From contig SDNW01000002.1 in NCBI GenBank assembly GCA_004524725.1, positions 4,792 through 68,791 on the forward strand: a stretch of DNA of 64,000 bases, given 5' to 3'. The notes under the pieces were generated by a model. That model was not told the DNA's origin, made no database searches, and saw only the letters and a program-made list of their open reading frames with translations. The DNA comes from Promethearchaeota archaeon (GTDB taxonomy: Archaea > Asgardarchaeota > Lokiarchaeia > Sigyniarchaeales > SOKP01). Both the position numbers and the translations under genes were made by a program. Of the stretch, positions 16,043 to 58,851 are shown piece by piece (position 1 is the stretch's first letter; every line of letters begins with the position of its first letter).

Positions 16043-16059
16043 AAGGAGAATTTGTAAAT

Positions 16060-19000
16060 ATGACAAGTAAAAAGAATATATTTATTGGTTTTGTAATAAT
16101 TGTCAGTCTTTTCTCAATTAGTATTCCTCCCCATGCTTCTCTCAATCAAAAAGATGAAGATCAGTCCGGTACAGAATTCTTAGCCACTAGCGATGTTGCT
16201 GGAACCGATTTATATGCTGAGAATATTGATGTGTATGTTGCCGGAAATAAGTCTATCATAAAGCAATCCCTTTTCTCAAATGATACAACTATCATACCAG
16301 AATTTGATACTAGAGACCCGGCTTTTTATAAATGCAATGTCCACTTTTCCGTTTCCAATGGAATCGTTCCTGAGATATTTCCCAAGGTAATTACTGAAAA
16401 TGACATTCCAATTCAGTTTGGTATGACATTTAACAGTTTCTCGGGTTTTCTATATTATGAAGAATCACTTTTAGAATCTGACGTAAAGATAAGAGCAACC
16501 CGAGCACTTGAAATTATAAAGAGAAAATTTGAAATCGACTTAATTCAAGTTTCATCAAATAATCCCTATTTCTTTCCATTCATAGGCTATTTTCCTGATT
16601 GGAATATATATTTGAGAGAAATTACGGGAAACTTGCCTATGGATGGCTATTGGAAAGCATTGGATAAAGACAGACTTACATCTAGTGAATATATAACCTC
16701 AAAACATTTATCTTCAACCTTTCTACTTATAAATTCCTTAGAATTATTAGAAAAAGATTTTCTTAATACAATTGATCAAATCGATTTTAATTTAGAATCC
16801 TTGGATTTATCCTATTTAGAATCATTTGATGCAGAAATGGTATTTGAACAATTTTCTAATGTATTATTTGACTATCCCGCAATTTTTGGTAATTTTACAG
16901 ATTTAATAGGAGCAAACGAAACCGATAGTTTAGGAGATATGGATGCCCTAATCGAAGTTTTAGAAGGATTATCCCTTAGCAACCGGTCGTATTATACTAA
17001 CCTAATGATTCAATATGAAGGTGCTGAAGATGGGATTACTGAAGTTAGTCCAAATAAATATCAATTTAGCTTATGGAAAGCTTTAAACTATAATGGAGCT
17101 GCTTTGCGACCAAGTGAGAAAATTTTTATTGCATTATTAGGAGCTTTCATGAGTAATATTGATATTAATATAATGTGCACTGAAATTACAAACTTCAGTC
17201 CGAAATATTATGATTTCTATAGTTTTTTGCTAGAACAGATCGAAACCATATTGTTTTACGCTGAAATTGACTTTGATGCCGAATCCTTAGAAGATTATTC
17301 GCTTGAGCTCTTTTGGACGGATTTTGAGGGAATAAAGCGGAGTTATGTAAAACCTGTAAATCTAAACGACCCAGAGGATTATATCAACTTTTTATCTGTT
17401 ATTGGATTCCAAGGATTTGAAGGATTACCGGCGGGTATTTTGAATCCCCTCAATAATTTTGTAGTTTCCTATATAACTAATTATTCTGAACCATCCATAT
17501 TGATACAAAAGGATTTAATTGGAAATAATGCTTCATACGGCGTATATAACACTTTCTCTTTTAATATCACTGCAAAGAATGTGGGAAATTCTACGGTATG
17601 GGGGAATCCAACAAATATTCCATTAGATTTAGAAGACGCGTTAGCACTTATTGTCGGGCCAGTAGGAGTTTTTTTAGGTCTTGATCAGGATTTAGAAGAT
17701 GCTATTTGGGAAATTGTGAGGGTAATTTATTCAGGACAATATAGTTCCTTAGAGGATTTCTTTAACTTCAATGAAAAACCCCGTATCTTCTATTTTGACA
17801 CTACAGGTGCGGGATTTATTGATTATTATTATCCAAATTTGTTAAATATCTCAAACCTTTTGCCTTACAACGAAAATATGGATGAAATTATCACTATAAT
17901 GGCCTCTTCCTATCAACAATTATTAGATTCTTTAGATGCTGTTGGTGTTTCTACAAACGATCTACGCACTATATTTACCAATAAAGAAAGTATTTGGAAT
18001 GAAGAAAATTGGAAGTTAGAACCAGGAGAAAAACTATCGTATGAATTCACTAACTTTTCAATAGAGGCATATGATTCTTTCACTCCCTTTTACAACTACT
18101 CCTTTCTTGTAAGAGAGGAATATCCCAACTTACCTTATATCATCTCTGGAAGTACTATTGCCGGGACCATTCCTCAGATGGCTTTAGAAAATGATAATCA
18201 AAGTTGGATTATCGAATCAGAGGAAAAATATGTAGGATACCATGAAATCGATATCCAATTCCTTTTTAAAAATCAAACAGCTATAGATTTCGAGAATAAC
18301 TCATTAGAACGTGTATCAATTCTTATAAATATGACCGAGATTTCAAATAATCTCCTTTTTGAAGTTTTTAATTTTACTTCAGAAACTTTTGACGATATGA
18401 GTAATTTTTCAAGCTCAGATACAAATAGTTCTTTAGAATTTTCCTTTGAAAGAGATAATGGCTCATTAGAATGGATATTCGATCCTAATACAAGAATGAA
18501 TCATAGCATCTTAATTCGAATAATGGGATCTGATTCTAATAGCTTTAATATTTCTCTTGATAATTTTGATGTTCAATTTTCTTACCGAGATATTAATGCA
18601 TTTCAAGTATTAGGATCAAGATTTATTTATAGCTCCTTCAGTGGAAATATTGAATATATTAGCAGATCAAATTCAATAACATTAAGTACCTATAATATGG
18701 CTTCCATTGTCGCATATGGCTATTTAAATGAATATAGTTGTATTCAAGGAGACCTACTTAATTATAATTTAATTTTGCAAAATATTGGTTCTGAAACGGC
18801 TTATAACGTAAATATTTCTATGTTAATTCCAGGAATTCCTTACCAAGTGAATGAATTCATACTAGAAAATAGTACACTAACCAAAATAATCCCTGAAATA
18901 ATGCCAAATGTAAAAAGACAGCTTAATTTTTCTTTTTTCAGTCCAAATACGGCAAAATTGAGCGCAGTTTCTATTAAATATGAAAGTAATGAAACGATTG

Positions 19001-20031
19001 CCAACCTTAATTCCACTCATTTAACAGCTAGACCGAATGAGGTTTTCTTTTCATCTCCCATTGATTATAAGGATCGATTTCCTTTCATAAAAACAGTTGA
19101 GATTAACATAAATTCATCCACTAATAGTCCTCAGATTTATGAATATTTTGATATGACTTTTAGAATTAAAAATTCAGGATTAGAGGGATTCAATATTTCT
19201 TCAATGACTTTCTTTACAAGAGATCAATTTGGAGATTTAATTCCTTGGAATGATTCCTTTACTCTTACTAATATTGAATATAATCAAATCAAAACCTTTT
19301 CTTTAACGCTCTATAAAAAAGATTGGAAAGCCTATTTCTATCCTTCAATTAATCATTTTAAGGGTTCAGAAAGTAGAATAATTCAAATTAGACAATCCGA
19401 ATCGATCGTACTGGGAACCATTAACCTTACAATTTTAAAAACAGTGGAAAAAAATCAAATTGAAATTGGAGATATTATATCTGTTAATATTACCGTCATT
19501 AATAGTGGTTCAATTTGTATTAAAAATGTTAGCTTACAAGATACAATCAGTTTTTCGGGGATAAATTTTGATTTAATAACGGGCAAGTTAGTAAATGATA
19601 TTCCATGTTTAAGCTCGGGGGAAGCATTCAGTTTTCTGTATACAATAAGAGCTAAAACTCAAGCGCTGGTATCCTTAAAACCTGCGTTTGTTGAACAATA
19701 TTATCTTAACAAGGTTAGATATCAATCTAATGAGATTCAAATAAAGATATTGATTCCAAAGACCACCCAATTTCTGTTTATTATTGGCCCTTCATTGGGA
19801 GTGGTTGTGGTTTTATCAATCTTCTTATGGCAGAGACATAAATATAATTCGAAAAAATATGAACGATCACGCTATGAATTGACTCTTTTTCAAGATTCTT
19901 CTTTAACTTCCGTCCTCACTATTGAACGCACTTTACGAGATTATTTTAACTCAACCTCAAGCAATAAATCAAGAGCGCCTACTGACTTGCGCGAAATTCC
20001 GAAAGAAAATACAGGTGATTCTAATGAATAA
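16060..20031 (+). CDS. Large membrane-anchored surface protein with CARDB/DUF11-like beta-sandwich repeats
   Basis: N-terminal signal/anchor (KKNIFIGFVIIVSLFSISIPPHA). C-terminal TM (FLFIIGPSLGVVVVLSIFLW) plus a cytoplasmic tail. Recurring motif ITAKNVGNSTVWG / LILQNIGSETAYNVNISM / RIKNSGLEGFNISS / ITVINSGSICIKNVSL. Very many N-x-S/T sequons. The track start is GTG 16039; ATG 16060, preceded by AAAGGAG, is preferred. Confidence 0.7.
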   Translation: MTSKKNIFIGFVIIVSLFSISIPPHASLNQKDEDQSGTEFLATSDVAGTDLYAENIDVYVAGNKSIIKQSLFSNDTTIIPEFDTRDPAFYKCNVHFSVSNGIVPEIFPKVITENDIPIQFGMTFNSFSGFLYYEESLLESDVKIRATRALEIIKRKFEIDLIQVSSNNPYFFPFIGYFPDWNIYLREITGNLPMDGYWKALDKDRLTSSEYITSKHLSSTFLLINSLELLEKDFLNTIDQIDFNLESLDLSYLESFDAEMVFEQFSNVLFDYPAIFGNFTDLIGANETDSLGDMDALIEVLEGLSLSNRSYYTNLMIQYEGAEDGITEVSPNKYQFSLWKALNYNGAALRPSEKIFIALLGAFMSNIDINIMCTEITNFSPKYYDFYSFLLEQIETILFYAEIDFDAESLEDYSLELFWTDFEGIKRSYVKPVNLNDPEDYINFLSVIGFQGFEGLPAGILNPLNNFVVSYITNYSEPSILIQKDLIGNNASYGVYNTFSFNITAKNVGNSTVWGNPTNIPLDLEDALALIVGPVGVFLGLDQDLEDAIWEIVRVIYSGQYSSLEDFFNFNEKPRIFYFDTTGAGFIDYYYPNLLNISNLLPYNENMDEIITIMASSYQQLLDSLDAVGVSTNDLRTIFTNKESIWNEENWKLEPGEKLSYEFTNFSIEAYDSFTPFYNYSFLVREEYPNLPYIISGSTIAGTIPQMALENDNQSWIIESEEKYVGYHEIDIQFLFKNQTAIDFENNSLERVSILINMTEISNNLLFEVFNFTSETFDDMSNFSSSDTNSSLEFSFERDNGSLEWIFDPNTRMNHSILIRIMGSDSNSFNISLDNFDVQFSYRDINAFQVLGSRFIYSSFSGNIEYISRSNSITLSTYNMASIVAYGYLNEYSCIQGDLLNYNLILQNIGSETAYNVNISMLIPGIPYQVNEFILENSTLTKIIPEIMPNVKRQLNFSFFSPNTAKLSAVSIKYESNETIANLNSTHLTARPNEVFFSSPIDYKDRFPFIKTVEININSSTNSPQIYEYFDMTFRIKNSGLEGFNISSMTFFTRDQFGDLIPWNDSFTLTNIEYNQIKTFSLTLYKKDWKAYFYPSINHFKGSESRIIQIRQSESIVLGTINLTILKTVEKNQIEIGDIISVNITVINSGSICIKNVSLQDTISFSGINFDLITGKLVNDIPCLSSGEAFSFLYTIRAKTQALVSLKPAFVEQYYLNKVRYQSNEIQIKILIPKTTQFLFIIGPSLGVVVVLSIFLWQRHKYNSKKYERSRYELTLFQDSSLTSVLTIERTLRDYFNSTSSNKSRAPTDLREIPKENTGDSNE

Positions 20032-23000
20032 ACGGATAATTATAATTGGTCTTATTGTAATTGGTATCATTTCTACTGGGATTGGTTTAATTAATTTCAT
20101 TAACAATAACAATGTACTTGATTTTCATCAATTCTCAAGTGAAAAGAGTAATTTAAATAGTGCGGATGGCGAAATTGCTCCATTTATTGTTTACTTCAAT
20201 TCTTCATCGTATAATATATTTGCTGAAACTCGATTCATAGATTATGGAGGAATAATCAACAACCAAAGGAAATGGAATGGAATATTTAATGAGTTTTCAG
20301 GGTTTGCTGGGACATTTCCTCTTGAAAATATATCTTTCTATAAAGCTGAATTTCCTAATATCAACATTGAGAGAGATGAGATTTTGGAAGTACAAATGAA
20401 CTATGCTGCAATTCAAAGTCATGCTATTAATTCTACTTGGAGTTTAAACGGATATACTGGAGACATTAATTCTTCTATTGCTCTATTAGATAGTGGAGTA
20501 AATCCAGATCAGGACTTTCTCAACGGAAAAATTAGTGATTGGTATAATTTTATAAATAGCGATCCAATCTCTGATGATAATGGGCATGGCACCTTTTTAT
20601 CATCTGTTATTGCAGGAACAGGAACAAGATCCTATGATTCCATCGAACCATCAATTACAAATATATACGGTAATTATTCACATTTGGAGTTATTTAATGA
20701 ATTCATACCATCAAAAAATTATTCTTTGAAACTTATATCATTAAATCTTTCCAAAATTGATTCTTATTTTCAGTTATCTTCAATTTGTGACTTTAATATT
20801 GTTGAAATTGATAAAATGTGGTTTGAGCTCTACTTAAACTCCACATTACTTAATTCCACTTTACATCTTAATCCTTTTTTGAACCAAGAATTCCAATACA
20901 AAGTTTTAGACAAAGGAGTTTACGATCTCATTTTAAAATATCATAAAAAAAGCGAAGTAATTCCCAATTTTTCATTTAACGCAACCATATCATTTTTTCC
21001 GGAAACTTGTACTCCAAATTTTAATCATTTTACGGGGATTGCGAATGGATCCAAAATTGCTTCCTATAAAGTAGTGAATCAATCTGGTTTAGGCAATAGT
21101 TCAGATTTAATCAGTGCCTTGTCTAGAGTAATCCAAAATCGAGTATCAAAACATATTATGGCTGTTTGTTTAAGTATAGGAACATTAGGAGATGATTATA
21201 TCGCTTTAAATAAAGTAATTGATGAGGTAACAAACAATAATATATTAGTAGTTATTGCTGCTGGAAATTATGGAATTGAAGGTTCGGATCCTTTTAACAA
21301 GTTAGGTATAAATAAGAACGGAATAGTAGTCGGATCAACTAATGACATTGATCAAGTCAGTTCTTTTAGCAGTATGGGAAAAAATATCGGAGAGGGAATA
21401 ATTAAGCCAGATATTATGGCTCCAGGTGGCAGTTCTCTTTTAGGACACCGCTCTATAGTTAGTGCTGATCATTATTCTGATGAAACAACTTCACTTGAAG
21501 GAACCTCCATATCTGCAGCCATAGTCTCAGGGGCTATAAATATCTTGATTGAAGCGGGATGGGGTGACTGGGACACTTGGAATACCCAAGATCTTTCAAA
21601 ATGGTCAAAAATTATTAAAGCCATTCTATTGATGACTGCTTCTGAAACTAATCTTGATAGAGAAGACGATCCTAACACGATTATTGATGAAAGTGATTTT
21701 TCTCCCTCTTCCTTTAATGGTTTTACTGATTCATTGAAAGATAGTCATGAGGGATATGGGAGATTAAACATTCAAGCTGCTATTGATGCATTAACTAAAG
21801 AAATGGCGGTTTCTAATAGTGTTTCGGATCGCCTTATAAGTTCTTCACTGAATCCATTAGGAAATCATGTATTTGCCAGAAAGATTCAACTAGAAAGCAA
21901 CTCTCAATATCAATTTAATCTATCAAATGTAAATGAAGAAAGTGATTTTGATATGTTTCTTTTTTCGAACGAATCGGATCAATATGGTGAACCGATTTTA
22001 TTACAATCAACTCAAAAATGGTTTGGCAAATTCGATTCTTTTTATTTTACTCCAAAACAAAATGAAAGTGAATGCATATTAATTGTGAAAGCGAATGAAG
22101 GAGAAAGTGATTTTAGTGTAAATGTATCATTAGTAGAGAATCTTTATATTCCAGAATTAAAAATATCCGAGATTTCATATTTGGGAGGAGAAAAAAATGC
22201 AACTATTATCAGTCAGCAAGAATTTTTTGGCAATTCACCACTTAAGAACTATTCAATTGATAGATATTGGTTCTATATTGATTATTTTGATGCTGATATC
22301 ACCAATGTACCTCCTCAAGAAGTGGTAGTCCATATAATTGAAACTGCAAAGAATTATACGCTCTACCAACTAAATCAAGCCGATAATAATTATACAGATG
22401 GTGCTCAGTTTCGTGGCCAGCTCATAGAATTTCCTTCGCCAGGTGAATATCATTATTTCTTTAGTGCTAGTGATGGAACGAATAATGTACGATTTCCCGC
22501 TTCTAATAATTTCACAGTATCAATTGAATTTCCTACAGATAGTGAATCTTTCCCCTATACTCATAATTTCAGTGAGGGATTAGCTAATTGGTATTTCAAC
22601 GGAACAGGGTGGGACATCTTAACTCAGAGTAATTTAATCGATAACAGATCGCAAATCTATGACGATGACTGGTCTTCTGTTTATTTTGGACGAGATCATA
22701 TATTTCCTTCCAATTATACATATCAACCATATAATATAGAAGATTTCTATCCTAATGGAACTCTTTTTAGTCCATTGTTTAATTTGACAGGAATTATCAC
22801 TAACACAACTCATCCATTTGCTAAACTTGGTTTAAGAACAAGTATCAATATGGGAGACTCAATCTTACTGCAAATTAACCTCAATTGGACAGGATGGAGA
22901 ACGTTAAAGACTTATACTAATCAAGAAAGGGATTGGTTCATAGATATATTCAATTTAACGGAATATATTGGCAATTTTGTCCAGTTCAGATTTTTTACTA

Positions 23001-24805
23001 ACTTAGATGATAATTTTGATCCTATCTACTATAAAGGAGTAATGTTAGATCATTTTTCATTATATAACTATTCAAATCAGCACGTTCCTCAGTATTCTTT
23101 TGACATTAATCATGATGTCTATTCTGATGAAGAGTCGCGATTCTCAATGTATGAGTTCTCGTGCGATTATTATGATAAGGATGGAAACTATCCGGAATAC
23201 GTTTATCTTGAGATAAATAACAATAATTATACTATGATTAATGCCTATGGCGATTGGAATGTTAGTTCTGACAGTTCTAACAAGTGGGGAGTTTCTTTTA
23301 CTCGTTCTTTGCCTATTCATGATTTTTCAAATCAATCTTTTCGCTTCCATATTTATGATGGTAATTATCTGAATACCTCTGAATGGTTTAATTCGGATAA
23401 TAATTTATTTCCTCTCTCTGTTCCAACCATTCTTCAATTTAATACCTACATGAATTCAACATTGATTGGTTATCAATTTTCAAATCAACTTTACCCTGAT
23501 TTTTATGTTGCTGGTAAACCCATACCGAGCGAACAAACAGCTTGGTTAAGAGGTGAAAATACATGGCATACTGTTACGCGCTTCAATATATCATATCTCT
23601 ATGGGGGACTCGGACAAAGCTTTGGGAGCCTTTACACTGGTTATTATCAAGGATGGAATGCTAATTTAATTAGTCGACCATTACAATTAAGAGGCGACCA
23701 TAATATATATTTGCAATATTTTTATGATATTTCTCTTCAAAATGAGTTTGCTTTAGAAGAAAATGAACTTGATTATTGTAGTGTCTCTATTTCTCAAGAT
23801 TTTGGAGAAACATGGGAAGAACTAAAGAGTTATTATTATGACGATGAAACTTTATCCGGTAATGAAAGCATAGATTTATCTGCATACGAAAATGAAGTAG
23901 TTATGATAATGTTTACTCTTTACTCTAATAATTTAACGGTAGGATTAGGTTCGGGATGGTTATTATCTGATATATATATTGGTTTTGATAAAAATACAGA
24001 TTTCATAAATCCTGAAATTGTTTTTCTTAAACCAGATATTAATGAATTAGTAAATTCTGTAACTGAGATTGAAGCTTTAATTACAGATAATTATGGTATT
24101 GATCCTTCAAGAATTTATTTGTATTTGAACGATAAATTGGTAGGAAGCCAATATTATGATTATGATATTGAGACGGGTATTTTCAATTACAATTGGGATA
24201 CTACCTATTCTATTGATGGGTCTTATGAACTAAAAATAATTGCGTTTGATGAGGAAGGAAATAAAGCAGAAAAATCTGTGATGGTGATAGTTGAAAATGG
24301 TTTTATTAACTGGCACACATGGGGTCCTTGGATTATCATAATCATTGGAACTGTTATTTTAGGCATAGTTTTGTTTATTCTTGCAGAGAAAAAAGGTACT
24401 ATTTGGATTAAACGCATGAAAAATAATAATGCAGAAAATTTAAGATTAAAAGATATTGATAAGGATCAAGTAATCAAGCGTATTGAAATAATCGAATCGG
24501 AATACGCCCAAGATCGCCCTTTAACTTTACATTGTAAATATTGTGATTCATGGTTTGAATCGAAAAAATTTGATTATATATGTCCTGTATGTGAGCATGA
24601 TACACTTTACGTGGCTTATAATTGTTTAAATTGTAAAAAATGGTATTTTAAAGATGAACCTGGAGATAATTATTACTGCTCGAAATGTGAAGGAATTAAA
24701 TTAATCCCAAGAGAGAAAGAAGAAGTTAAAGGAATTTTAGCGAACCAAGGATATGTTTTAAGGAAATATGAGTATAAAGATAAAAAATTTAGTATTTTAG
24801 ACTAA
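20024..24805 (+). CDS. Membrane-anchored subtilisin-like serine protease (peptidase S8) with cytoplasmic zinc-ribbon tail
   Basis: S8 catalytic residues: Asp (IALLDSGV), His (DDNGHGTF), oxyanion Asn (IAAGNYG), Ser (LEGTSISAA). N-terminal anchor IIIIGLIVIGIISTGIGLI. I9-like propeptide. PPC-like domain (FDMFLFS...ILIVKANEGESDFSVNV). Ig-like domain. C-terminal TM (WIIIIIGTVILGIVLFILA). Four CxxC pairs. Start moved to ATG 20024 (ATGAATAA overlaps the upstream stop). The first 34 codons of the track ORF lie inside the previous gene. Confidence 0.85.
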   Translation: MNKRIIIIGLIVIGIISTGIGLINFINNNNVLDFHQFSSEKSNLNSADGEIAPFIVYFNSSSYNIFAETRFIDYGGIINNQRKWNGIFNEFSGFAGTFPLENISFYKAEFPNINIERDEILEVQMNYAAIQSHAINSTWSLNGYTGDINSSIALLDSGVNPDQDFLNGKISDWYNFINSDPISDDNGHGTFLSSVIAGTGTRSYDSIEPSITNIYGNYSHLELFNEFIPSKNYSLKLISLNLSKIDSYFQLSSICDFNIVEIDKMWFELYLNSTLLNSTLHLNPFLNQEFQYKVLDKGVYDLILKYHKKSEVIPNFSFNATISFFPETCTPNFNHFTGIANGSKIASYKVVNQSGLGNSSDLISALSRVIQNRVSKHIMAVCLSIGTLGDDYIALNKVIDEVTNNNILVVIAAGNYGIEGSDPFNKLGINKNGIVVGSTNDIDQVSSFSSMGKNIGEGIIKPDIMAPGGSSLLGHRSIVSADHYSDETTSLEGTSISAAIVSGAINILIEAGWGDWDTWNTQDLSKWSKIIKAILLMTASETNLDREDDPNTIIDESDFSPSSFNGFTDSLKDSHEGYGRLNIQAAIDALTKEMAVSNSVSDRLISSSLNPLGNHVFARKIQLESNSQYQFNLSNVNEESDFDMFLFSNESDQYGEPILLQSTQKWFGKFDSFYFTPKQNESECILIVKANEGESDFSVNVSLVENLYIPELKISEISYLGGEKNATIISQQEFFGNSPLKNYSIDRYWFYIDYFDADITNVPPQEVVVHIIETAKNYTLYQLNQADNNYTDGAQFRGQLIEFPSPGEYHYFFSASDGTNNVRFPASNNFTVSIEFPTDSESFPYTHNFSEGLANWYFNGTGWDILTQSNLIDNRSQIYDDDWSSVYFGRDHIFPSNYTYQPYNIEDFYPNGTLFSPLFNLTGIITNTTHPFAKLGLRTSINMGDSILLQINLNWTGWRTLKTYTNQERDWFIDIFNLTEYIGNFVQFRFFTNLDDNFDPIYYKGVMLDHFSLYNYSNQHVPQYSFDINHDVYSDEESRFSMYEFSCDYYDKDGNYPEYVYLEINNNNYTMINAYGDWNVSSDSSNKWGVSFTRSLPIHDFSNQSFRFHIYDGNYLNTSEWFNSDNNLFPLSVPTILQFNTYMNSTLIGYQFSNQLYPDFYVAGKPIPSEQTAWLRGENTWHTVTRFNISYLYGGLGQSFGSLYTGYYQGWNANLISRPLQLRGDHNIYLQYFYDISLQNEFALEENELDYCSVSISQDFGETWEELKSYYYDDETLSGNESIDLSAYENEVVMIMFTLYSNNLTVGLGSGWLLSDIYIGFDKNTDFINPEIVFLKPDINELVNSVTEIEALITDNYGIDPSRIYLYLNDKLVGSQYYDYDIETGIFNYNWDTTYSIDGSYELKIIAFDEEGNKAEKSVMVIVENGFINWHTWGPWIIIIIGTVILGIVLFILAEKKGTIWIKRMKNNNAENLRLKDIDKDQVIKRIEIIESEYAQDRPLTLHCKYCDSWFESKKFDYICPVCEHDTLYVAYNCLNCKKWYFKDEPGDNYYCSKCEGIKLIPREKEEVKGILANQGYVLRKYEYKDKKFSILD

Positions 24806-24830
24806 AATAAGAAAATATACAATTAAAACG

Positions 24831-27797
24831 ATGCGATTAGAAAATCTATTATATAGAATGCGGAGTAAAATTAGATTACGTTATATTAAGCATGCATGGC
24901 TGAATATTAAGAAAGATAAAGCTAAAACAATTTTTGGTATTGCGGGCATCATGACCTCTATCATATTATTAACTGCAATTGGAATGGTAAATGATACTTT
25001 ATCTTACAATTATATGGAGATTGTAACAAGCACCACGGGTAATTCCGATATATTGATATCAAAACGAATTCAAACTGATTTAAATTACAATCCGTTTTTT
25101 AATGAAAGCATTATCGAAACTAAACTCAGTAATATTGAAGGTGTTGAGGAATTATTTCCGCGAATGATGATGTTAGTAAGATCAGATTCAGAAAATATCG
25201 CATCCAATTACACGCTCCAGTTATATGGAATAGATTTTATTAAGGAGTCATCAAATGGTCATATAGGAAATTTAAATGTAGTTGATTCAGAAGGGAAAGA
25301 AACGGGAGAAGTATATTCTGACGAACCTAATATGGGAGAGTGTGTATTATTATGGAATAGTGCCCAATTATTAAATGTGACTCTTGGTGATTTTATACAA
25401 GTTGATTATCTAGGAGACTCTGTAGAGTTGGAAATTGTTGAAGTTTGTAGACAGGAGCTAAAATTTACGGAGCTTGAAAATACTTTAATTCTTGTGAATA
25501 TTGAACAAGCTCAGTCTATTTTGACTCGAGGAAGGAAAGAAATAAACTTTATTGCAGGTACCGTTGAAAATCCCGAATCTATTTATGATGTAAGGGATGT
25601 AGATCTCACATTGAGAAAACTAAGGACTATTGGAACGAGAATTCAAACCAAATTAGATCCTAATGAATTTACCGTATCAATGCCTAAATTAGAGGAGTTA
25701 AGTGCTCAGCAATTTTTATTAATCGCTATGACTATTATCTTTTGGTTTATTACTATTATCTCAATTTTAATTACGGGTATTTTAATAAATTCAATCCTAT
25801 CTACTTCTAGCGAAGAACGAATTAGAGAATATGGTGTTCTTCGGGTATTAGGAGGGAGGAAAACCTTTCCAGTAAAAATTGTAATTTTTGAAGGCTTTTT
25901 TATGGGATTAACAGGTTCAATATTGGGTATTATCATTGGATTAATTTTTACCCCTCCGATTGTGAATGCGTTATACATAATAACTGGTTCACCCTTTCAA
26001 AATTTTGATTATGTTATCCAACCTCAAACAATTATTCTTGCTTTTTCAATTGGATCAGCGACTTCATTGGTGATTTCGCTACTCCCTGCATTAAAAACTA
26101 GCAAGTTGAACATTATTAAATCCATTACTCCATTCCATTCAAAAGAAGAAGGTTGGGAAGTAAAGAAAGAAGGAAGTGTAAATGTGAGAAATTTTTTAAT
26201 CGGTTTGTCCATTGCTACCATCGGAATGGTAGTTTTTATATTATTACCCAATATTATAGTGACAGGAAATTTCATGAGCATTGCAGGTTTGTTCATTGGA
26301 TTATTGGGTGCTATTTTAATCGGACTTGTCTTTAGTTCAGTAGGAATTGTTCCGATAATTCAAAATGGGATACTTTATATTATCTCCCCTTTTATACGCA
26401 AATACTACAATATTATTAAAATCTCCCTTAAACGCAATCGTAGAAGGAATACCAGTACAATAGTGATGTTTGCTTTGAGTTTCTCATTCATTTTCTTTAT
26501 CACGAGCGTAACTGAAATGGAAACCCAGAATACGGCCTTGAATTTAAGATTTCAGTATGGTTCCGATTTAGTAATTATAAATCAAGGGCTTGATGCTAGT
26601 GTTGATGCCGTAACTTTAGAGATGGTAAATGATTTGACATCGTTAGTGGGGATTGATGATTTGGCAATGACGCTTTATAATATGTTCGACATCACCTCAA
26701 TATTATCAATCGCATATAGTTTCGGAGCAGAAGGCTCATTTGATGAAGAATCGATTAATGAAGCTTTCCTAGACATTTTTGAATTTTATTCGCAACAGAG
26801 ACAATCAAAATATCAAGTTATTGCTTCAGATATTGCTCGACATGATGAGTTGGAAATTGGGTTTGTAGGAATCGAAGATAACTATTATAATGTCATGGAC
26901 AGAGAGCTCTTTATATGGAGCAGCCCTTCTAGTGGATTCAATTATTCATTTAGTGAATTATTTAATCACAACGATACTTGCATAATTGCTACTTCTTTAG
27001 CAACAAGATTAGGAATACAGGATATTGGAGAACAAATTCTTCTTACCTTCTATGATCCAGAAAAAGAAGTAGATTTAGGAACTCCTATACTCCTTGAAGT
27101 GGTAGGAATATCTGGTGGCATGCCCGGATTCTTTAATTTCCGTAGTTCTGAGATGACTGCAGAAGGAGGAGGTATCATGGTTTCTTTGGATAATTATATG
27201 AATTTGATGAATGTAACAAATGCGGGAGAGGACAATATGATTATTGACAAAATTTATGTTAATCTTCTTGATGCTTCAGATGAAAATATTCAGGAAGTGA
27301 AGGAAGAAATCAGAACTCTATACTCAGATAAAGATTATTTTCTAGATGATGCTATTTCAAAAATAAATTTCATGAACGATATGTTTCAGAGACAAAGCAC
27401 AATGCTTGAAATTATTACTTGGTTTGCCATTGCCATTGCGATCTTTGGCTTAGTAAGTACGATGTATGCGATAATGCTTGAGCGAAAATTTGAGATCGGT
27501 ATTTTAAGATCCCTTGGAATGAAAACAAGAAATGTAAGAAATCTATTTTTAATCGAAAGTTTATTAATATTAATATCCTCAGGAACCATGGGGACCATTA
27601 TTGGCACTTATAGTGCTTATCTTATGGAAACAAATATAGGACTTTTTAACGAATTACCGATAGTATTTTCAATTCCAGTTGATGCGTTACTCCGAGTTTT
27701 TATTATATCTATAGTAATAGGATTTGTTGGAATGTATTTAATATTAATAAGATTAAGTAAACAAACCATTATGGATATTTTTAGACAGACTTTTTAA
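24831..27797 (+). CDS. Second ABC transporter permease with two FtsX domains (paralog of 13049..16042)
   Basis: 988 aa with the same architecture. FtsX blocks contain EERIREYGVLRVLGGRK and ERKFEIGILRSLGMKTRN. Confidence 0.85.
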   Translation: MRLENLLYRMRSKIRLRYIKHAWLNIKKDKAKTIFGIAGIMTSIILLTAIGMVNDTLSYNYMEIVTSTTGNSDILISKRIQTDLNYNPFFNESIIETKLSNIEGVEELFPRMMMLVRSDSENIASNYTLQLYGIDFIKESSNGHIGNLNVVDSEGKETGEVYSDEPNMGECVLLWNSAQLLNVTLGDFIQVDYLGDSVELEIVEVCRQELKFTELENTLILVNIEQAQSILTRGRKEINFIAGTVENPESIYDVRDVDLTLRKLRTIGTRIQTKLDPNEFTVSMPKLEELSAQQFLLIAMTIIFWFITIISILITGILINSILSTSSEERIREYGVLRVLGGRKTFPVKIVIFEGFFMGLTGSILGIIIGLIFTPPIVNALYIITGSPFQNFDYVIQPQTIILAFSIGSATSLVISLLPALKTSKLNIIKSITPFHSKEEGWEVKKEGSVNVRNFLIGLSIATIGMVVFILLPNIIVTGNFMSIAGLFIGLLGAILIGLVFSSVGIVPIIQNGILYIISPFIRKYYNIIKISLKRNRRRNTSTIVMFALSFSFIFFITSVTEMETQNTALNLRFQYGSDLVIINQGLDASVDAVTLEMVNDLTSLVGIDDLAMTLYNMFDITSILSIAYSFGAEGSFDEESINEAFLDIFEFYSQQRQSKYQVIASDIARHDELEIGFVGIEDNYYNVMDRELFIWSSPSSGFNYSFSELFNHNDTCIIATSLATRLGIQDIGEQILLTFYDPEKEVDLGTPILLEVVGISGGMPGFFNFRSSEMTAEGGGIMVSLDNYMNLMNVTNAGEDNMIIDKIYVNLLDASDENIQEVKEEIRTLYSDKDYFLDDAISKINFMNDMFQRQSTMLEIITWFAIAIAIFGLVSTMYAIMLERKFEIGILRSLGMKTRNVRNLFLIESLLILISSGTMGTIIGTYSAYLMETNIGLFNELPIVFSIPVDALLRVFIISIVIGFVGMYLILIRLSKQTIMDIFRQTF

Positions 27798-47848: not shown

Positions 47849-47944
47849 GGGCCCGTGGTCTAGCCCGGTATGACGTCCGCTTGACGTGCGGAAAATTTCG
47901 TAAAGAAACCCGTAAGGTCGCGTGTTCAATTCACGCCGGGCCCA
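47849..47944 (+). tRNA. tRNA-Val (anticodon GAC) with a roughly 22-nt insertion/intron between the anticodon stem and the T-arm
   Basis: Hand-folded. Acceptor GGGCCCG/CGGGCCC. Anticodon arm TCCGC-TTGACGT-GCGGA. T-arm GCGTG-TTCAATT-CACGC. Discriminator A. 96 nt in total against about 74 nt for the mature cloverleaf. No encoded CCA. Confidence 0.8.
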
Positions 47945-47987
47945 CTATTTGAAAATCGTTTCAATATAATCTAAGAGATATAATATT

Positions 47988-54335: not shown

Positions 54336-54505
54336 GATTATTTAATATTAAGATTTATCAAATATGATAAAAATGGCAGAAATTCTTATATAATTTTGCT
54401 ATCTAAGGTATTAGGAAAAAGTGAAAGTATGAATTTTAGATCATAAACATCATTTATTTAAATTTAAACAACATAATTTATTCTAACCAAAAACATAGCG
54501 TGATA

Positions 54506-54994
54506 ATGATTAAAGATAAGTTTGAGCTGGTGGGTACGATGATCCCCGAGTTCGAATTACCAAATTCAAGGGGAGATAAAATCAATATCAAAGAATTCAA
54601 AAATAATAAAAATGTCATCATAGTGCTATTTAGAGATATACATTGACCATATTGTCGATGGCATGCGGCAGAATTGCGTAGGAATCTGGAAATGTTTGAA
54701 GAGTTGGATGGATATCTCTATCCAATATTAGCAGATAGCGAAGAAAATGCACAAAAAATGGAAAAAAAATATGCGCGAAATTATGCGATATTTTACGACC
54801 CTTCAAAAGAAGTACAAAAACTCTTAAATCAACAAGTAAAAATTTGGAAAGGCGGAAGAATGCCCGGATTATTGATTATTGATAAACAAGGAATAATACA
54901 GTACGCTTATTACAGTGATAGTATGAAAGATTTACCGAAAACTGAGGAGATATTGGAAGTATTAAAGAGAATAAATAGACAACCAAATGATTAA
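54506..54994 (+). CDS. Thioredoxin-fold redoxin (AhpC/TSA / Prx-like) with in-frame TGA at the first redox Cys position; candidate selenoprotein (U-P-Y-C)
   Basis: ATG 54506 opens a frame reading MIKDKFELVGTMIPEFELPNSRGDKINIKEFKNNKNVIIVLFRDIH-TGA(54644..54646)-PYCRWHAAELRRNLEMFEE... It runs in the same frame into track ORF 54674..54994. The TGA aligns with the first Cys of the family motif (F.G.WCPYCR..L..L). A pseudogene remains the alternative. Confidence 0.55.
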
Positions 54995-55075
54995 AAAGCG
55001 ATTTGGAATGGATAAAATGGAAAAAAAGAGGATATTTTATTCATAAAAGGTAGCCACACTTAACCAAATCAACCC

Positions 55076-55082
55076 TTTTTTT
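55076..55082 (+). terminator. Oligo-T tract (T7) downstream of the redoxin gene
   Basis: Read directly (aacccTTTTTTTaac), in the convergent intergenic region. Confidence 0.4.
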
Positions 55083-55154
55083 AACTTAAAAATAGATCTA
55101 TAATGAACTAATAAACTTTAATGAAATTCTATTAAAAAGAGATTTCTAAAAAAA

Positions 55155-55781
55155 TTAGTCGCGTGATTTTAACTTATTTAATTCTTCTTCGAGTTCTTTG
55201 ACCTTTCCATCGGGATCTACAGTAGGAAGAGCGCCTCCGATTTCAGCACCTATTTCAGCGTCAATTTCTCCTAATACTTCTTGAACTTGAGAGTCAGTTA
55301 CAGCAGAGTCCATTTGTATATCACTTATACCATCCGAAGTTATTTCTTGGGTGAGATCGAAGTCTTCCATATCAATTCCGATGTTATCCATGAGATCTGT
55401 AAGTTGTGGAATAGAAAGTTGACTCTTAAGAGCGCCTAAACTCGCCGCAATTCCATGCATAACATCCGCAACGTCTTTTACTGCAGTAGCTTGCTCCAGT
55501 TTAAAGACCATTCCTTCTAAATTCGTTCTAAAATGGTCTATCGCTCGTGCTTGCTTCTTTACTTGAAGATAATTGCGAGCGTGAAACGCAGAACCATCCA
55601 TATCACCGTTTTTTCGTAAATTTACTGCTTTATCACGAGCCAATTTTGCGGTCATTTCCATTTTCTTTGTTTGTCGCATCAATCGTTTGTTAAATACTTT
55701 TAATTTTACAGTAGCTGAACGAACAGTATCTTTCTTTTTACCCCCCGAAAGCCATTTACTCATATCCTTAAGAAAACCCAT
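55155..55781 (-). CDS. ESCRT-III subunit (Snf7 family; Vps2/24/46-CHMP1-3-like)
   Basis: 208 aa. Basic N-terminal half (helical hairpin). Acidic C-terminal half. Terminal amphipathic helix KELEEELNKLK resembles a MIM1 (L..(R)L..LK). N-terminal MGFLKDMSKWL amphipathic segment. Confidence 0.85.
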   Translation of the reverse strand: MGFLKDMSKWLSGGKKKDTVRSATVKLKVFNKRLMRQTKKMEMTAKLARDKAVNLRKNGDMDGSAFHARNYLQVKKQARAIDHFRTNLEGMVFKLEQATAVKDVADVMHGIAASLGALKSQLSIPQLTDLMDNIGIDMEDFDLTQEITSDGISDIQMDSAVTDSQVQEVLGEIDAEIGAEIGGALPTVDPDGKVKELEEELNKLKSRD

Positions 55782-55989
55782 ATTAAACCATCAAATTTAG
55801 TTGTTTTTATATATTATATAAAAGTTCGCAATTATATAATTTTTTGTAGACCAATTATTACCACGCTTTTGATAAAAGAAAATTTGATATAAGAAAATAT
55901 ATTAAATATTTAAACAAATACCGAACTAGATTACCTATAAATAGTAAGATTTGTATAAAATTAATAACTAGTTTTAAAGGTTATTTAGG
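55782..55989. promoter_or_regulatory. Divergent promoter region between ESCRT-III and vps4
   Basis: 208-nt AT-rich spacer with TATA-like elements (tttttatatattatataaaa near 55805-55825; tgtataaaatta at 55952-55963, about 30 nt upstream of the vps4 ATG). Not discriminating in such an AT-rich genome. Confidence 0.3.
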
Positions 55990-57207
55990 ATGTCAAGTGT
56001 CGATAGTAAACTTTATCAATATGCAGTCGAAGAAGCTCAAGCTGCCGTAAAGCTAGATGAGAGTGGGAGATACAGACAAGCAATTAACAAATATCAGCGA
56101 GCTGCTGAGATTTTGATACAATTTGTAAAATATAACAAAAATCCTATTATGATTAAACGTTGCCAAGATCAGATTGAGCAATATGTAAATCGAGCACAAA
56201 CTCTTAAGGCTCACTTGAGTGGTCCTCGGAGAAGGGGTTCCCCAGCTTCAATTAGTCCACACGAATCGAAAGGAGAGGCGTCCTCAGATACAGAGAGCAT
56301 CTATTCCAAAGAAGAACAAGAGTTAATAGACTCCATTTCTGGCACCATTTTGACTGAATCTCCAAACATAAAATGGATAGATATTGCGGGATTAGAGGAT
56401 TGCAAACAATCCTTACGAGAAGCGATAGTGTTACCTATAATGAAGCCAGAGCTCTTTACGGGAGCAAGAAAACCTTGGTCAGGAATCCTTTTGTTTGGCC
56501 CCCCAGGATGTGGTAAAACATTACTAGCAAAAGCAGCCGCTACTGAATGCAAAGCTACATTTTTTAGCGTTTCCTCTGCTGATATGTTAAGTAAATGGTT
56601 AGGCGAAAGTGAAAAGCTAATAAGCTCATTGTTTAAAGTAGCGCGTATAAAAGCTCCGAGTTTAATTTTTATGGATGAGATTGACTCAGTTGCTACAAGG
56701 AGGGGTGAGGGTCACGAAGGAGGTGGTGAGAGAAGAGTGAAAACCCAACTACTCAGTGAAATCCAAGGAATGAAATCAACATATGAAAAACCGTTATTAG
56801 TGCTTGGAGCTACTAATCGACCGTGGGATATTGACACAGCGATGCTCAGTCGTTTTGAGAAAAAAGTGTATGTTCCGCTTCCGGATATGCCCGCAAGGGC
56901 AGGTATCTTTAAAATCCATACTGCGGGGATTAATTCCGATTTAAATGAAGAAGATTATATTGAATTAGCTGTCCGATCAGAAGGCTATTCTGGGAGAGAT
57001 ATCTCGAATGTGTGTCGAGAAGTAATCATGATTCCTATTCGAGAATTAGATATGGGAGGCTTACTTGAAGATTCAGATAAGGAAGTTGTAGTAAGGGATA
57101 TTACAATAAAGGATTTTATTAAAACTCTTAAAAAGGTTAAACCGATGACAACCGGTTCTGAATTGAATAAATATGAAGATTGGGCAGAAGAATATGGAGA
57201 GTATTAA
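55990..57207 (+). CDS. vps4: Vps4-like AAA+ ATPase (MIT domain + AAA + Vps4 C-terminal helix)
   Basis: 405 aa. N-terminal MIT-like three-helix region (AVEEAQAAVKLDESGRYRQAINKYQRAAEILIQFVKY). Walker A GPPGCGKT. Walker B LIFMDEIDS. SRFEKKVYVPLPD. C-terminal YEDWAEEYG. Confidence 0.9.
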   Translation: MSSVDSKLYQYAVEEAQAAVKLDESGRYRQAINKYQRAAEILIQFVKYNKNPIMIKRCQDQIEQYVNRAQTLKAHLSGPRRRGSPASISPHESKGEASSDTESIYSKEEQELIDSISGTILTESPNIKWIDIAGLEDCKQSLREAIVLPIMKPELFTGARKPWSGILLFGPPGCGKTLLAKAAATECKATFFSVSSADMLSKWLGESEKLISSLFKVARIKAPSLIFMDEIDSVATRRGEGHEGGGERRVKTQLLSEIQGMKSTYEKPLLVLGATNRPWDIDTAMLSRFEKKVYVPLPDMPARAGIFKIHTAGINSDLNEEDYIELAVRSEGYSGRDISNVCREVIMIPIRELDMGGLLEDSDKEVVVRDITIKDFIKTLKKVKPMTTGSELNKYEDWAEEYGEY

Positions 57208-57229
57208 TATCATTTATTGATGAAAAATT

Positions 57230-58132
57230 ATGGAACGTCAGCGAGAAAAACCTAAAGAAGTTACTAAAGAAAAAAAAGAGCAACCTGAGAAAGAATTAGA
57301 GGATTTAAGGAAAGAATTAGCGCGATTAAAGGAGCTAAAAAAGCAAAAAGAGCTAGAACGAAAAAAAGAGGCAGAATCGCGGGTTGAGGGGGAAGAAGAG
57401 ATAGAAAAGGGCTATTCAAACTCTAAAAGTCAAGAAATTGAAGCAAGATTAGATAAAATCGAGGATTTTCTAACTTCAAAATTGGGTGAAGTAGATTTAA
57501 AAGCATACGAACAAAATGCCGAAGAAGTAGAACAGGAACTTATATTAATTGAACGAGAGATTGTCGGGGAGAAAGGTGTTATATCCAAAGAAGTTTCTAC
57601 TTATGAACTTTTAGTAAATGATTACCCGTGGTTAGAAGAAAAACGATATATTTTTATGTATACCTTACCGAATAAAAAAACGGATTTAAAAGATTTTGAA
57701 TCGTGGAAAAATGAATGGTCCAAAATTCTATTTGATTATGCCCGCTATGCAATTTTGCATATTTTATATTTAAGACAATTAGAATCTGAAAAACCATTTT
57801 CTAAATTTGAAGATCGAACCGAAGCATTGAAAGAAATTGCAGAAGAATTGGTTGAGAGAGAGCAAGCAGAATGGTTATCAAAAAGTAAAGAGAAATTACG
57901 GGTATATTGGAAATCACTTGACAATTGGGCTCAAGAAATATATGAATGGGTAATAGAAATCTCTCCATTGGAGCCTATTTTAATCTTTGAAATAAGAGAA
58001 TCAAATAAAGAATTTAGTAATTTGCCTAAAGATGATATTATAAAGATATTCAAATTGCTAGAAAAGGATAAGAAAGGGGAGATTATTAAAGCCGATAATG
58101 GGCAAATCTCATTTAAAATAAGAGTAGAATAA
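57230..58132 (+). CDS. vps25: ESCRT-II Vps25-like protein (two winged helices) with a roughly 125-aa charged coiled-coil N-terminal extension
   Basis: Residues about 130-300 align by eye to human VPS25 as I recall it. YPWLEEKRYIFMYTLPNKKTDLKDFESWKNEWSKILFDYARY matches FEWPWQYRFPPFFTLQPNVDTRQKQLAAWCSLVLSFCRLH. AEWLSKSKEKLRVYWKSLDNWAQEIYEWV matches LEWLDKSKSSFLIMWRRPEEWGKLIYQWV. The C-terminal KGEIIKADNGQISFKI matches KAEIITVSDGRGVKFF. Sits 22 nt downstream of vps4. Confidence 0.75.
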   Translation: MERQREKPKEVTKEKKEQPEKELEDLRKELARLKELKKQKELERKKEAESRVEGEEEIEKGYSNSKSQEIEARLDKIEDFLTSKLGEVDLKAYEQNAEEVEQELILIEREIVGEKGVISKEVSTYELLVNDYPWLEEKRYIFMYTLPNKKTDLKDFESWKNEWSKILFDYARYAILHILYLRQLESEKPFSKFEDRTEALKEIAEELVEREQAEWLSKSKEKLRVYWKSLDNWAQEIYEWVIEISPLEPILIFEIRESNKEFSNLPKDDIIKIFKLLEKDKKGEIIKADNGQISFKIRVE

Positions 58133-58134
58133 TT

Positions 58135-58851
58135 CTAAATAGAAGGAAAAAACCATTGTTTTCCTTTTAGCAATGAATCGCGAAATTTCGCGACCCCTGT
58201 TTCCTCTAGGGACTTTAGGGTTTCCAAGGCACGATCTTGAGACCAATTCAACCCGACACATATATCCTCAAGAGATATAAAACCTTTATCTTGAGCTAAA
58301 CCTATCACCTTTACTTGATCACTGGTATATTCCACTGGAAAAAACCGTACCATGATAATACCTGAACCTAATTCTTTAAGATCATCAATTACGTGTGATT
58401 TTTTTAATTTTTTTAGAGCTTTATATAAATCTTTCATATCTACAATGCCCTTTAAAATCCCAGTATTCACCAGATCAAACACTTCTGTTAAAGGAAGTAA
58501 ACCGACGCCTATCTCTTCTTTTTGCATTAAAACTCGTTGATAAGCCAACATTCCGAGTTTTTCATGATCGATTTTAGAAAATTTGATGAGGACATCATTT
58601 TCAGTAATTTGTTCCGTTACAATTTTAGAGGAAGGTATATTATATATTTTCTGTAATTCTTTCACATCTTCTTTTAATTCAGGAGTTAGAGCTAATATAA
58701 CTCCATGTCTTTTTGCCAATTCCCTCAGTCTCTCTTTTGTGAAATTTTCAGTCGCAGCTTTAGCTTGAATATCCTTAATCTTTAACTCTGCTGCTTTCTT
58801 TTTCATTGCTTCTCTTAGATCAATCTCATCTTCTATTTTACGAATTCCCAT
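58135..58851 (-). CDS. vps22: ESCRT-II Vps22/Vps36-like EAP30-domain protein
   Basis: 238 aa. The C-terminal two-thirds align by eye to human SNF8. DMKDLYKALKKLKK...LGSGIIMVRFFPVEYTSDQVKVIGLAQDKGFISLEDICVGLNWSQDRALETLKSLEETGVAKF...KQWFFPSI matches ...DDLIRAIKKLKALGTGFGIIPV...VPAELNMDHTVVLQLAEKNGYVTVSEIKASLKWETERARQVLEHLLKEGLAWLD...YWLPAL. Basic N-terminal helix. Confidence 0.8.
   Translation of the reverse strand: MGIRKIEDEIDLREAMKKKAAELKIKDIQAKAATENFTKERLRELAKRHGVILALTPELKEDVKELQKIYNIPSSKIVTEQITENDVLIKFSKIDHEKLGMLAYQRVLMQKEEIGVGLLPLTEVFDLVNTGILKGIVDMKDLYKALKKLKKSHVIDDLKELGSGIIMVRFFPVEYTSDQVKVIGLAQDKGFISLEDICVGLNWSQDRALETLKSLEETGVAKFRDSLLKGKQWFFPSI

Follow-up and report, generated by a model that had tools for sequence, protein, structure and literature searches.

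A peroxiredoxin-like gene with an in-frame UGA and a conserved three-helix 3' RNA in an Asgard archaeon: a probable selenoprotein and its candidate Sec signal

An open reading frame that ends in TGA exactly at the redox box of a peroxiredoxin-like protein, followed in the same frame by the remainder of the domain, raises the question whether this TGA stops translation or is decoded, which residue would then be inserted and which signal would direct its insertion. We addressed this question for one locus in an Asgard archaeon, using a stretch of 64 kb of DNA (the whole analysed stretch is called the window below) together with orthologous loci from related genomes. Judged from sequence comparison, the locus is highly probably an intact Prx-like (PrxL) selenoprotein gene encoding a Sec-Pro-Tyr-Cys redox box and carrying a Sec signal in its 3' UTR. 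The original prediction of a selenoprotein is thereby borne out by a conserved UGA, purifying selection on both sides of it, a Cys-containing homologue and an RNA element that occurs exclusively behind such genes.

The reading frame and the protein family

In the list of open reading frames of the window the gene is split into 54500..54646 (48 aa) and 54674..54994 (106 aa). If the TGA is decoded, one uninterrupted frame leads from GTG 54500 or ATG 54506 through the TGA to the TAA at 54992-54994 (Table 1); the upstream 46 and the downstream 115 codons, which had been predicted to share a frame, were found at the same coordinates. The product would comprise 162 aa when translation starts at the ATG (162–164 aa across both starts). 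The originally proposed start ATG 54506 is in frame, but it is the alternative, as the start conserved in the clade of the window is GTG 54500: the relatives L001–L005 possess a GTG at the start position and a third codon that is not ATG. Translation thus presumably starts at one of these two codons.

Table 1. Features of the PrxL locus (positions refer to the window)
Feature	Position	Strand	Description
PrxL N-terminal coding part	54500..54643	+	46–48 codons before the predicted Sec codon
In-frame TGA, predicted Sec codon	54644..54646	+	U47 when counted from the ATG; opens the U-P-Y-C redox box
PrxL C-terminal coding part	54647..54994	+	115 codons and TAA stop 54992-54994
SECIS-like three-helix RNA	55000..55070	+	covariance model 84.7 bits, E about 4e-20
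P1	55000-55006 with 55064-55070	+	GATTTGG (GAUUUGG) / CCAAATC (CCAAAUC), 7 bp
P2	55008-55018 with 55034-55044	+	9-bp core and 2–3 extra pairs
P2 core	55010-55018 with 55034-55042	+	GGATAAAAT / ATTTTATTC
A-rich apical loop	55019-55033	+	GGAAAAAAAGAGGAU, 15 nt, holds A7
P3 hairpin	55047-55061	+	4 bp; loop UAGCCAC 55051-55057
Run of 7 T	55076-55082	+	immediately 3' of the element; read from sequence

Public records show the gene in different disguises. Gene calls have kept its C-terminal part alone, labelled 'redoxin domain-containing protein' with 100 aa (P0032), and in an independently assembled contig the identical gene has been annotated as a pair of genes (46 aa and 100 aa). All 'full-length' homologues in the protein databases show a W at the Sec position because code 4 was applied to short A-T-rich contigs, and some of these code-4 gene calls even read through the terminal TGA and continue into the 3' UTR. 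The neighbouring genes encode Snf7 (55155-55781, minus strand), Vps4 (55990-57207), an ESCRT-II subunit and an EAP30-family protein, which is an ESCRT cluster typical of Asgard archaea, and the nearest database copies of the gene originate from Promethearchaeota/Lokiarchaeota MAGs.

The joined 162-aa protein is spanned by the Pfam family AhpC-TSA (PF00578, profile positions 1-123/124, E = 4.5e-22) with Redoxin as a second match (E = 2.3e-14), and this nearly full-length match agrees with the complete AhpC/TSA-redoxin-like domain claimed beforehand. Its redox box reads U47-P-Y-C50 with C50 being the sole Cys in the translation. The protein therefore shows the feature that sets PrxL apart, namely C/U-x-x-C instead of T/S-x-x-C with no further Cys, and the sequence R43-D-I-H-U47-P-Y-C50 departs from the canonical peroxiredoxin motif P-x-x-x-T/S-x-x-C. 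When aligned with solved BCP-type peroxiredoxins, U47 takes the place of the Thr of T-x-x-C, C50 that of the peroxidatic Cys and R43 that of the Pro. When aligned with a distant haloarchaeal Cys homologue from the data set of Huang et al., U47 falls onto the first Cys of its C-x-x-C. The view that Sec replaces the nucleophilic Cys is thus correct for the CxxC branch of Prx-like and thioredoxin-like proteins but not for canonical peroxiredoxins, in which the corresponding residue is Thr.

For a view of the fold, we used the AlphaFold model of the homologue P0003 (pLDDT 93.8), in which W stands in place of Sec and the equivalent residue 49 caps the N-terminus of the active-site helix 50-61. The best fold matches of this model in the PDB are BCP-type peroxiredoxins (TM 0.81–0.85); its top structural matches are Bcp1, Bcp4 and AhpE (TM 0.81–0.86), with ResA lower in the list. 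Sulfolobus Bcp1 (PDB 3drn) is also the best PDB match by sequence (E = 1.7e-10), and the conserved Arg of BCP/PrxQ-type peroxiredoxins is present in the window protein (R118), whereas their P-x-x-x-T-x-x-C is replaced by R-x-x-x-U-x-x-C. As Sec occupies the site of the catalytic Thr and C50 that of the peroxidatic Cys, a peroxidase activity of PrxL is not assured, and the protein presumably acts on its substrate as a thiol-dependent oxidoreductase.

PrxL is one of five selenoprotein families described for Lokiarchaeota (Mariotti et al. 2016, PMC4989117) and is defined by the AhpC/TSA fold in combination with a redox box of the thioredoxin type, in which Sec can take the place of the first Cys (PMC4989117). 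It was found in 43% of the Sec-using Asgard genomes by Huang, Xiao & Zhang (2024, PMC11227280), and their supplementary FASTA file holds the same subfamily with the signature MKDKF...IN-X-P[YF]CRWH (PMC11227280). Its entry Lokiarchaeia_GCA_013375485_U_3 shows 67% identity to the window protein over 157 aa with Sec aligned to Sec (X). Three PrxL types can be distinguished in these data: type A with U-P-Y/F-C, to which the window gene belongs and of which a side branch with U-P-Y-A/S has lost the second Cys, type B with W-U-S-H-C-K and type C with W-U-x-x-U-K. Types A and B share 22% identity with their Sec positions aligned. With the known UxxC/UxxU PrxL of Asgard archaea the window gene shares the AhpC/TSA domain, a U-x-x-C replacing the T-x-x-C of peroxiredoxins, the lack of Cys outside the box, the Asgard host and a 3' UTR Sec signal past the stop. 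At the protein level there is no difference; the window gene is one more member of the MKDKF...U-P-[YF]-C-R-W-H subfamily. The window gene is therefore a further, publicly mis-annotated member of an already published Asgard selenoprotein family.

A three-helix RNA behind the stop codon

Scanning for orthologues with one genome per species gave 76 Asgard loci (genomes) with 79 gene copies. Two of these genomes are from cultured strains, namely Lokiarchaeum ossiferum (CP104013.1) and Promethearchaeum syntrophicum MK-D1 (NZ_CP042905.2, about 2,203,578-2,204,055), and both possess the orthologue along with the 3' element described below. All type-A genes possess a conserved stretch directly 3' of the stop codon, and the structured element, which in the window begins 5 nt past the TAA and about 354 nt past the UGA, is the only conserved part of the intergenic space of 160 nt. 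A three-helix structure for this stretch (P1–P3, Table 1) was drawn by hand and tested by pair counting on 71 copies aligned with MAFFT. In this alignment 90.6% of the cells are paired, compared with 37–58% when the partners are slid, and both sides have changed in 18 of the 22 pairs; none of 500 shuffles reached any of the five measures. In a model-based alignment of all 79 copies the paired cells amount to 94.2% (slid controls 36–55%) and 21 of the 22 pairs are compensated, which again was reached in 0/500 shuffles. The latter alignment leans towards its own model, and the independent MAFFT result agrees with it.

A hairpin had been predicted for this very region, and its stems could be located at the predicted positions with compensatory changes across the orthologues. 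It had been taken for a single hairpin of uncertain SECIS nature: the suspicion of a SECIS has gained support, but the hairpin turned out to be one arm of a three-helix element. The 5' internal loop containing GAA that was part of the prediction does not exist, since G55006 closes P1 and A55008 pairs with U55044. RNAfold recovers the stems from 55000-55070, the stability of the window copy being unremarkable (z = -1.55), and RNAalifold found no structure in the MAFFT alignment of the A-U-rich element. Across the copies the P3 loop UAGCCA(C/A/U) is kept in 73/79, the apical loops vary from 11 to 19 nt with a run of at least four A in 67/79, and the 5' junction is a single nucleotide, which is A in 39/79 and U in 37/79.

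In a search of about 510 kb of loci with the covariance model R1 we obtained 79 matches. All are located 3' of PrxL genes, with a match for each copy of the tandem paralogues and one for a decayed paralogue, so that the same RNA was found nowhere else in these loci. In the window the model, which was built here from the MAFFT alignment, finds the element strongly only once. A second match at 8711-8781 on the minus strand (22.7 bits) lies antisense inside the ORF of an LRR protein and is due to chance. The Rfam SECIS families gave no match, neither in the window at the gathering threshold nor in 54400-55300 at E <= 10, and Rfam matches to drum, snoZ30 and SOX2OT are chance hits as well. Standard SECIS models have also been described to fail on Loki genes by Mariotti et al. 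(PMC4989117).

Two further locations or partners of a signal were considered. A bacterial-type SECIS inside the coding region can be ruled out, as the synonymous sites beside the UGA vary freely, and the comparison of orthologues revealed no conserved structure next to the UGA. We also rejected base pairing between the P3 loop and the W-H codons close to the UGA, because it would involve only 4 nt and, judged by eye, is not accompanied by covariation in the U-P-Y-A branch.

Comparison with known SECIS elements

The published lokiSECIS consists of AUGA, a 9-bp stem, an 11-nt loop with an A-start (AAAAA) and a G at its end, and a following GA (PMC4989117, PMC11227280). For comparison we collected type-B/C PrxL genes from 76 metagenomic loci, and their 3' UTRs indeed show AUGA in 60/63, the 11-nt loop in 56/63 and the GA in 58/63 cases along with the 9-bp stem. 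In addition, these elements possess a lower stem (CCC... / ...GGG) and a small hairpin immediately past "GA-C"; the hairpin is present in 57/58 and the combination of hairpin and lower stem in 46/58, compared with 6% in shuffles. The type-A element resembles the lokiSECIS in its location near the stop, the 9-bp core stem, the A-rich apical loop, the lower stem and the small 3'-side hairpin between the upper and lower stems, which the canonical PrxL elements thus have as well. It differs in that the AUGA..GA quartet is found at the equivalent position in 0/79 copies, the positions flanking the 9-bp stem forming covarying Watson-Crick or wobble pairs instead, and also in its longer loops (15 nt in the window) and its nearly invariant P3 loop.

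In the window an alternative register of the junction can be drawn, in which the last P1 base and the one-base 5' junction face the two-base junction before P3. It would sacrifice the top P1 pair for G55006·A55046 and A55007·A55045, and it fits the loose type I pattern of Huang et al. as "GA_AA" (PMC11227280). Such a GA_AA or GA_GA register is possible in 25 of the 79 copies, window included, and the close relatives L002 and L003 carry AU instead of AA at the junction. A GA quartet is not a conserved feature of the type-A element. The strict canonical lokiSECIS pattern gave only weak matches in the window and 76 loci. The window contains two of them, of which the one at 49087 falls within an ORF. 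Conversely, the type-A model found no match in the type-B/C loci. As it is blind to type-B elements, the relatedness of the two has to be read from their layout, and this architecture suggests a common ancestry of type-A and type-B elements.

With eukaryotic SECIS elements, which contain a kink-turn quartet and are bound by SBP2, the type-A element shares the location in the 3' UTR, a lower and an upper helix and unpaired apical adenines; it differs in lacking a conserved GA/AG quartet, in its shorter stem and in an extra hairpin at the position of the 3' internal loop. Asgard archaea are not known to possess SBP2 (PMC11227280). The euryarchaeal SECIS of the Methanococcus type likewise resides in the 3' UTR of an archaeal host, but it is characterised by a GAA_A bulge and a G-C-rich upper stem, whereas the type-A element has no conserved GAA_A bulge and a long, A-U-rich upper stem. 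The comparison supports a layout of the Lokiarchaeota, i.e. eukaryote-like, kind and not of the euryarchaeal GAA-bulge kind.

Very likely, the conserved 3' element is the Sec insertion signal of type-A PrxL. One may object that the selenoprotein gene is real and that this RNA acts as a terminator, a stability element or another regulatory element, the Sec signal being located elsewhere. We consider this improbable. The missing conserved GA quartet, the lack of a match to any Rfam SECIS family and the failure of the type-A model to find canonical elements would fit such a role, as would the T-run immediately past the RNA. Most relatives likewise have T-rich runs downstream of the element, and the one in the window is probably an archaeal transcription stop, in which case the 3' UTR would essentially consist of the SECIS-like element alone. 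Against a merely regulatory RNA stands its strict association with UGA-containing PrxL genes, behind which all 79 matches are located and of which each tandem paralogue has its own copy. The stem length, the A-rich loop and the P1/P3 layout are moreover common to the canonical lokiSECIS of the sister types, and neither the surroundings of the UGA nor the remaining intergenic space offers another conserved structure.

That the type-A element works as a Sec insertion signal without a conserved GA/AG quartet and relies instead on the three-helix junction, made up of the lower stem, the 9-bp stem with the A-rich loop and the UAGCCA(C/A/U) hairpin, is a tentative proposal to which we would give slightly less than an even chance. 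The third hairpin may then be an unrecognised determinant of Sec insertion. In the texts of the articles consulted, supplementary tables aside, we came across neither a third hairpin nor a PrxL element without the quartet.

Decoding of the UGA and its meaning

At protein identities of 46–80%, the homologous codon is TGA in 79/79 orthologous copies and TGC, TGT or TGG in 0/79. Selection was analysed on a codon alignment of 78 genes, and among 181 less diverged pairs the median dN/dS was similar before (0.11) and after (0.09) the TGA. Between the window gene and its relatives the synonymous sites are saturated (pS 0.69–0.90), with pN being 0.07–0.15 upstream and 0.10–0.21 downstream. It had been argued that a stop codon would hardly fall by chance on the catalytic residue, and the TGA in every copy together with the absence of a second lesion confirms this argument. 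TGA also serves as a true stop in 3 of the 49 long ORFs of the window, once in a GTGA overlap onto the next gene, and several of the orthologous PrxL genes themselves end in TGA at conserved length; the standard code is therefore used. Thus, the invariant TGA, the selection on both of its sides and the TGA stops make a pseudogene, an assembly error, a split gene or a reassigned code very unlikely.

The residue inserted at the UGA would be Sec rather than another amino acid. For a decoding as something else, either by near-cognate read-through with Cys or Trp or by a reassigned code, one could refer to the gene callers, by which many orthologues were translated with TGA as W, and to the base after the UGA, which is C in 77/79 copies. 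UGA-C is a leaky context. This C is however forced by the Pro codon, and TGA is a true stop both in the window and in orthologous PrxL genes. The UGA is located exactly at the redox-active Cys/Sec site, and TGC, TGT or TGG codons, which would be expected among the orthologues if Cys or Trp were acceptable, do not occur. We therefore regard a non-Sec decoding as very improbable, the more so since the lineage is documented to use Sec in PrxL (PMC4989117, PMC11227280).

The Sec machinery is another point that could be raised in favour of a non-Sec decoding, as neither tRNA-Sec nor SelD, EFSec, PSTK or SepSecS was recognised in the 64-kb window, an absence that carries no weight in either direction given a host genome of several Mb. 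The Pfam scan covered 40 of the about 50 long ORFs; the last 10 comprise those of 59–64 kb and the large surface proteins. Similarly, no further genes with an in-frame TGA were found in the window outside regions covered by another ORF. As only 64 kb are covered, the presence of the machinery in the source organism is taken from the published distribution in the lineage, and the Asgard lineage has been reported to possess it (PMC4989117, PMC11227280).

That the UGA simply terminates translation, yielding a peptide of 46–48 aa with or without a product of 100–106 aa from an internal start, or that the locus is a pseudogene or an assembly error, is hardly credible, since in spite of two annotated genes in public records (46 aa and 100 aa) and a possible internal start at TTG 54674, each fragment represents an incomplete fold with the break inside the active site, the same 'lesion' occurs in 79/79 copies across deep divergence without a second one, both parts are under strong purifying selection in one frame and the identical sequence was assembled independently.

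For the selenoprotein, the following biosynthesis can be proposed. Translation would start at the GTG or the ATG, and the structured element at 55000-55070 would recruit a Sec elongation factor of the archaeal/eukaryal type, which would deliver Sec-tRNA(Sec) at the UGA. Translation would end at the TAA and transcription probably at the T-run. The product of 162–164 aa is predicted to adopt a peroxiredoxin/thioredoxin fold in which Sec begins the active-site helix and is followed by Cys at the third residue after it, and PrxL presumably cycles via a selenenyl-sulfide in the way CxxC oxidoreductases cycle via a disulfide.

For the gene itself the value of this analysis is mainly corrective, as public records show a 100-aa fragment or, due to the wrong code, a Trp protein. 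In about 75 genomes type-A PrxL keeps the Sec codon and a 3' element without a conserved GA quartet, and the sister PrxL genes carry AUGA..GA in the same three-helix frame, which provides a natural comparison for the parts required in an Asgard SECIS. If the signal without the quartet indeed works, the quartet would not be a general requirement of Sec insertion in Asgard archaea, and the quartet-less element with its third hairpin would bear on the proposed transition from Loki to eukaryotic SECIS.

Start and surroundings of the PrxL gene

In the clade of the window the conserved start of PrxL, a peroxiredoxin-like AhpC/TSA-fold thiol oxidoreductase, is a GTG (coordinates of all features are listed in the table), and in relatives there is no ATG corresponding to 54506, where the original prediction had placed the start. 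About 32–45 nt 5' of this GTG lies the A/T-rich box TATTTAAATTTAAA, which is found again in relatives and may represent a TATA box. The selenoprotein gene is adjoined by an ESCRT gene cluster, and the order PfkB-PrxL-Snf7-Vps4 is conserved in three Asgard loci (L001–L003), with Snf7 of the window being 97.6% identical to that of L001 but PrxL only 78%.

A further match to the covariance model of the type-A element, the SECIS-like RNA of the 3' UTR, was weak (22.7 bits, E ~0.005) and was judged to be due to chance; it lies antisense within an ORF for an LRR protein and no TGA-containing gene is located upstream. Elsewhere in the window, the length of a tRNA-Val(GAC) call (97 nt) suggests an archaeal tRNA gene with an intron, and an ABC-transporter ATPase gene precedes a block of very large genes, namely those for two predicted membrane proteins of ~990 aa with similar N-termini and two still longer ORFs (1330 aa and 1627 aa).

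Coordinates of features in the window and in orthologous Asgard loci
Locus	Positions	Strand	Feature
Window	8353-9096		LRR-protein ORF
Window	8711-8781	-	Rejected element-model match
Window	11819-12997		ABC-transporter ATPase
Window	13049-27797		Block of very large genes
Window	47849-47945		tRNA-Val(GAC)
Window	54455-54468		Box TATTTAAATTTAAA
Window	54500-54508		Start region, conserved GTG 54500
Window	55155-58851	-, +, +, -	Snf7, Vps4, ESCRT-II subunit, EAP30/Vps22-36 family
L023	1795-2345; 2995-3550		Tandem PrxL paralogues
L038	3690-3862		Stretch before the second element, with the final ~45 codons of a PrxL gene
L038	3866-3942		Second element
L059, L061	2320-2886; 3001-3552		Tandem PrxL paralogues

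Public annotation and the lokiSECIS of type-B/C genes

In the public gene calls of the homologues P0001, P0002, P0004, P0013 and P0015 the Sec TGA is rendered as W (code 4), and the same calls continue beyond the gene's own TGA stop, so that part of the SECIS-like element is translated as well and spurious C-terminal tails (...WFGMDK...) result. Although its record is titled 'Candidatus Nanopelagicaceae bacterium', L060 (DATKTW010000112.1) contains a PrxL gene of Asgard type, complete with TGA and element, and this contig is probably mis-binned.

Behind the type-B/C genes of metagenomic loci (L077–L151) the 3' UTR carries the canonical lokiSECIS (AUGA, 9 bp, 11 nt, GA), bordered by a lower stem pairing CCC with GGG and followed directly after 'GA-C' by a small covarying hairpin. 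Together, lower stem and hairpin give this element a three-way-junction layout, of which the available portions of the published papers' text make no mention.

Tandem copies and a branch with Sec alone

L023 as well as L059 and L061 carry tandem PrxL paralogues with one element per copy, a U-P-Y-A copy adjoining a U-P-F-C copy in L023; in L059 and L061, the two Borrarchaeum genomes, a U-G-H-U copy with two Sec adjoins a U-P-Y-C copy. L038 has two type-A elements, the second (70.7 bits) ~320 nt beyond the first and preceded by just the end of a PrxL gene; apparently a tandem paralogue has decayed here while its RNA element survived.

Within the type-A subfamily, U-P-Y-[A/S]-K-A-[HY] defines a side branch (L023 first copy, L058, L060, L062, L064–L067, L069, L070, L073 and L076), in which the Cys aligned to the peroxidatic Cys of peroxiredoxins is gone. 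As Sec alone is left, these proteins are expected to follow another catalytic cycle.
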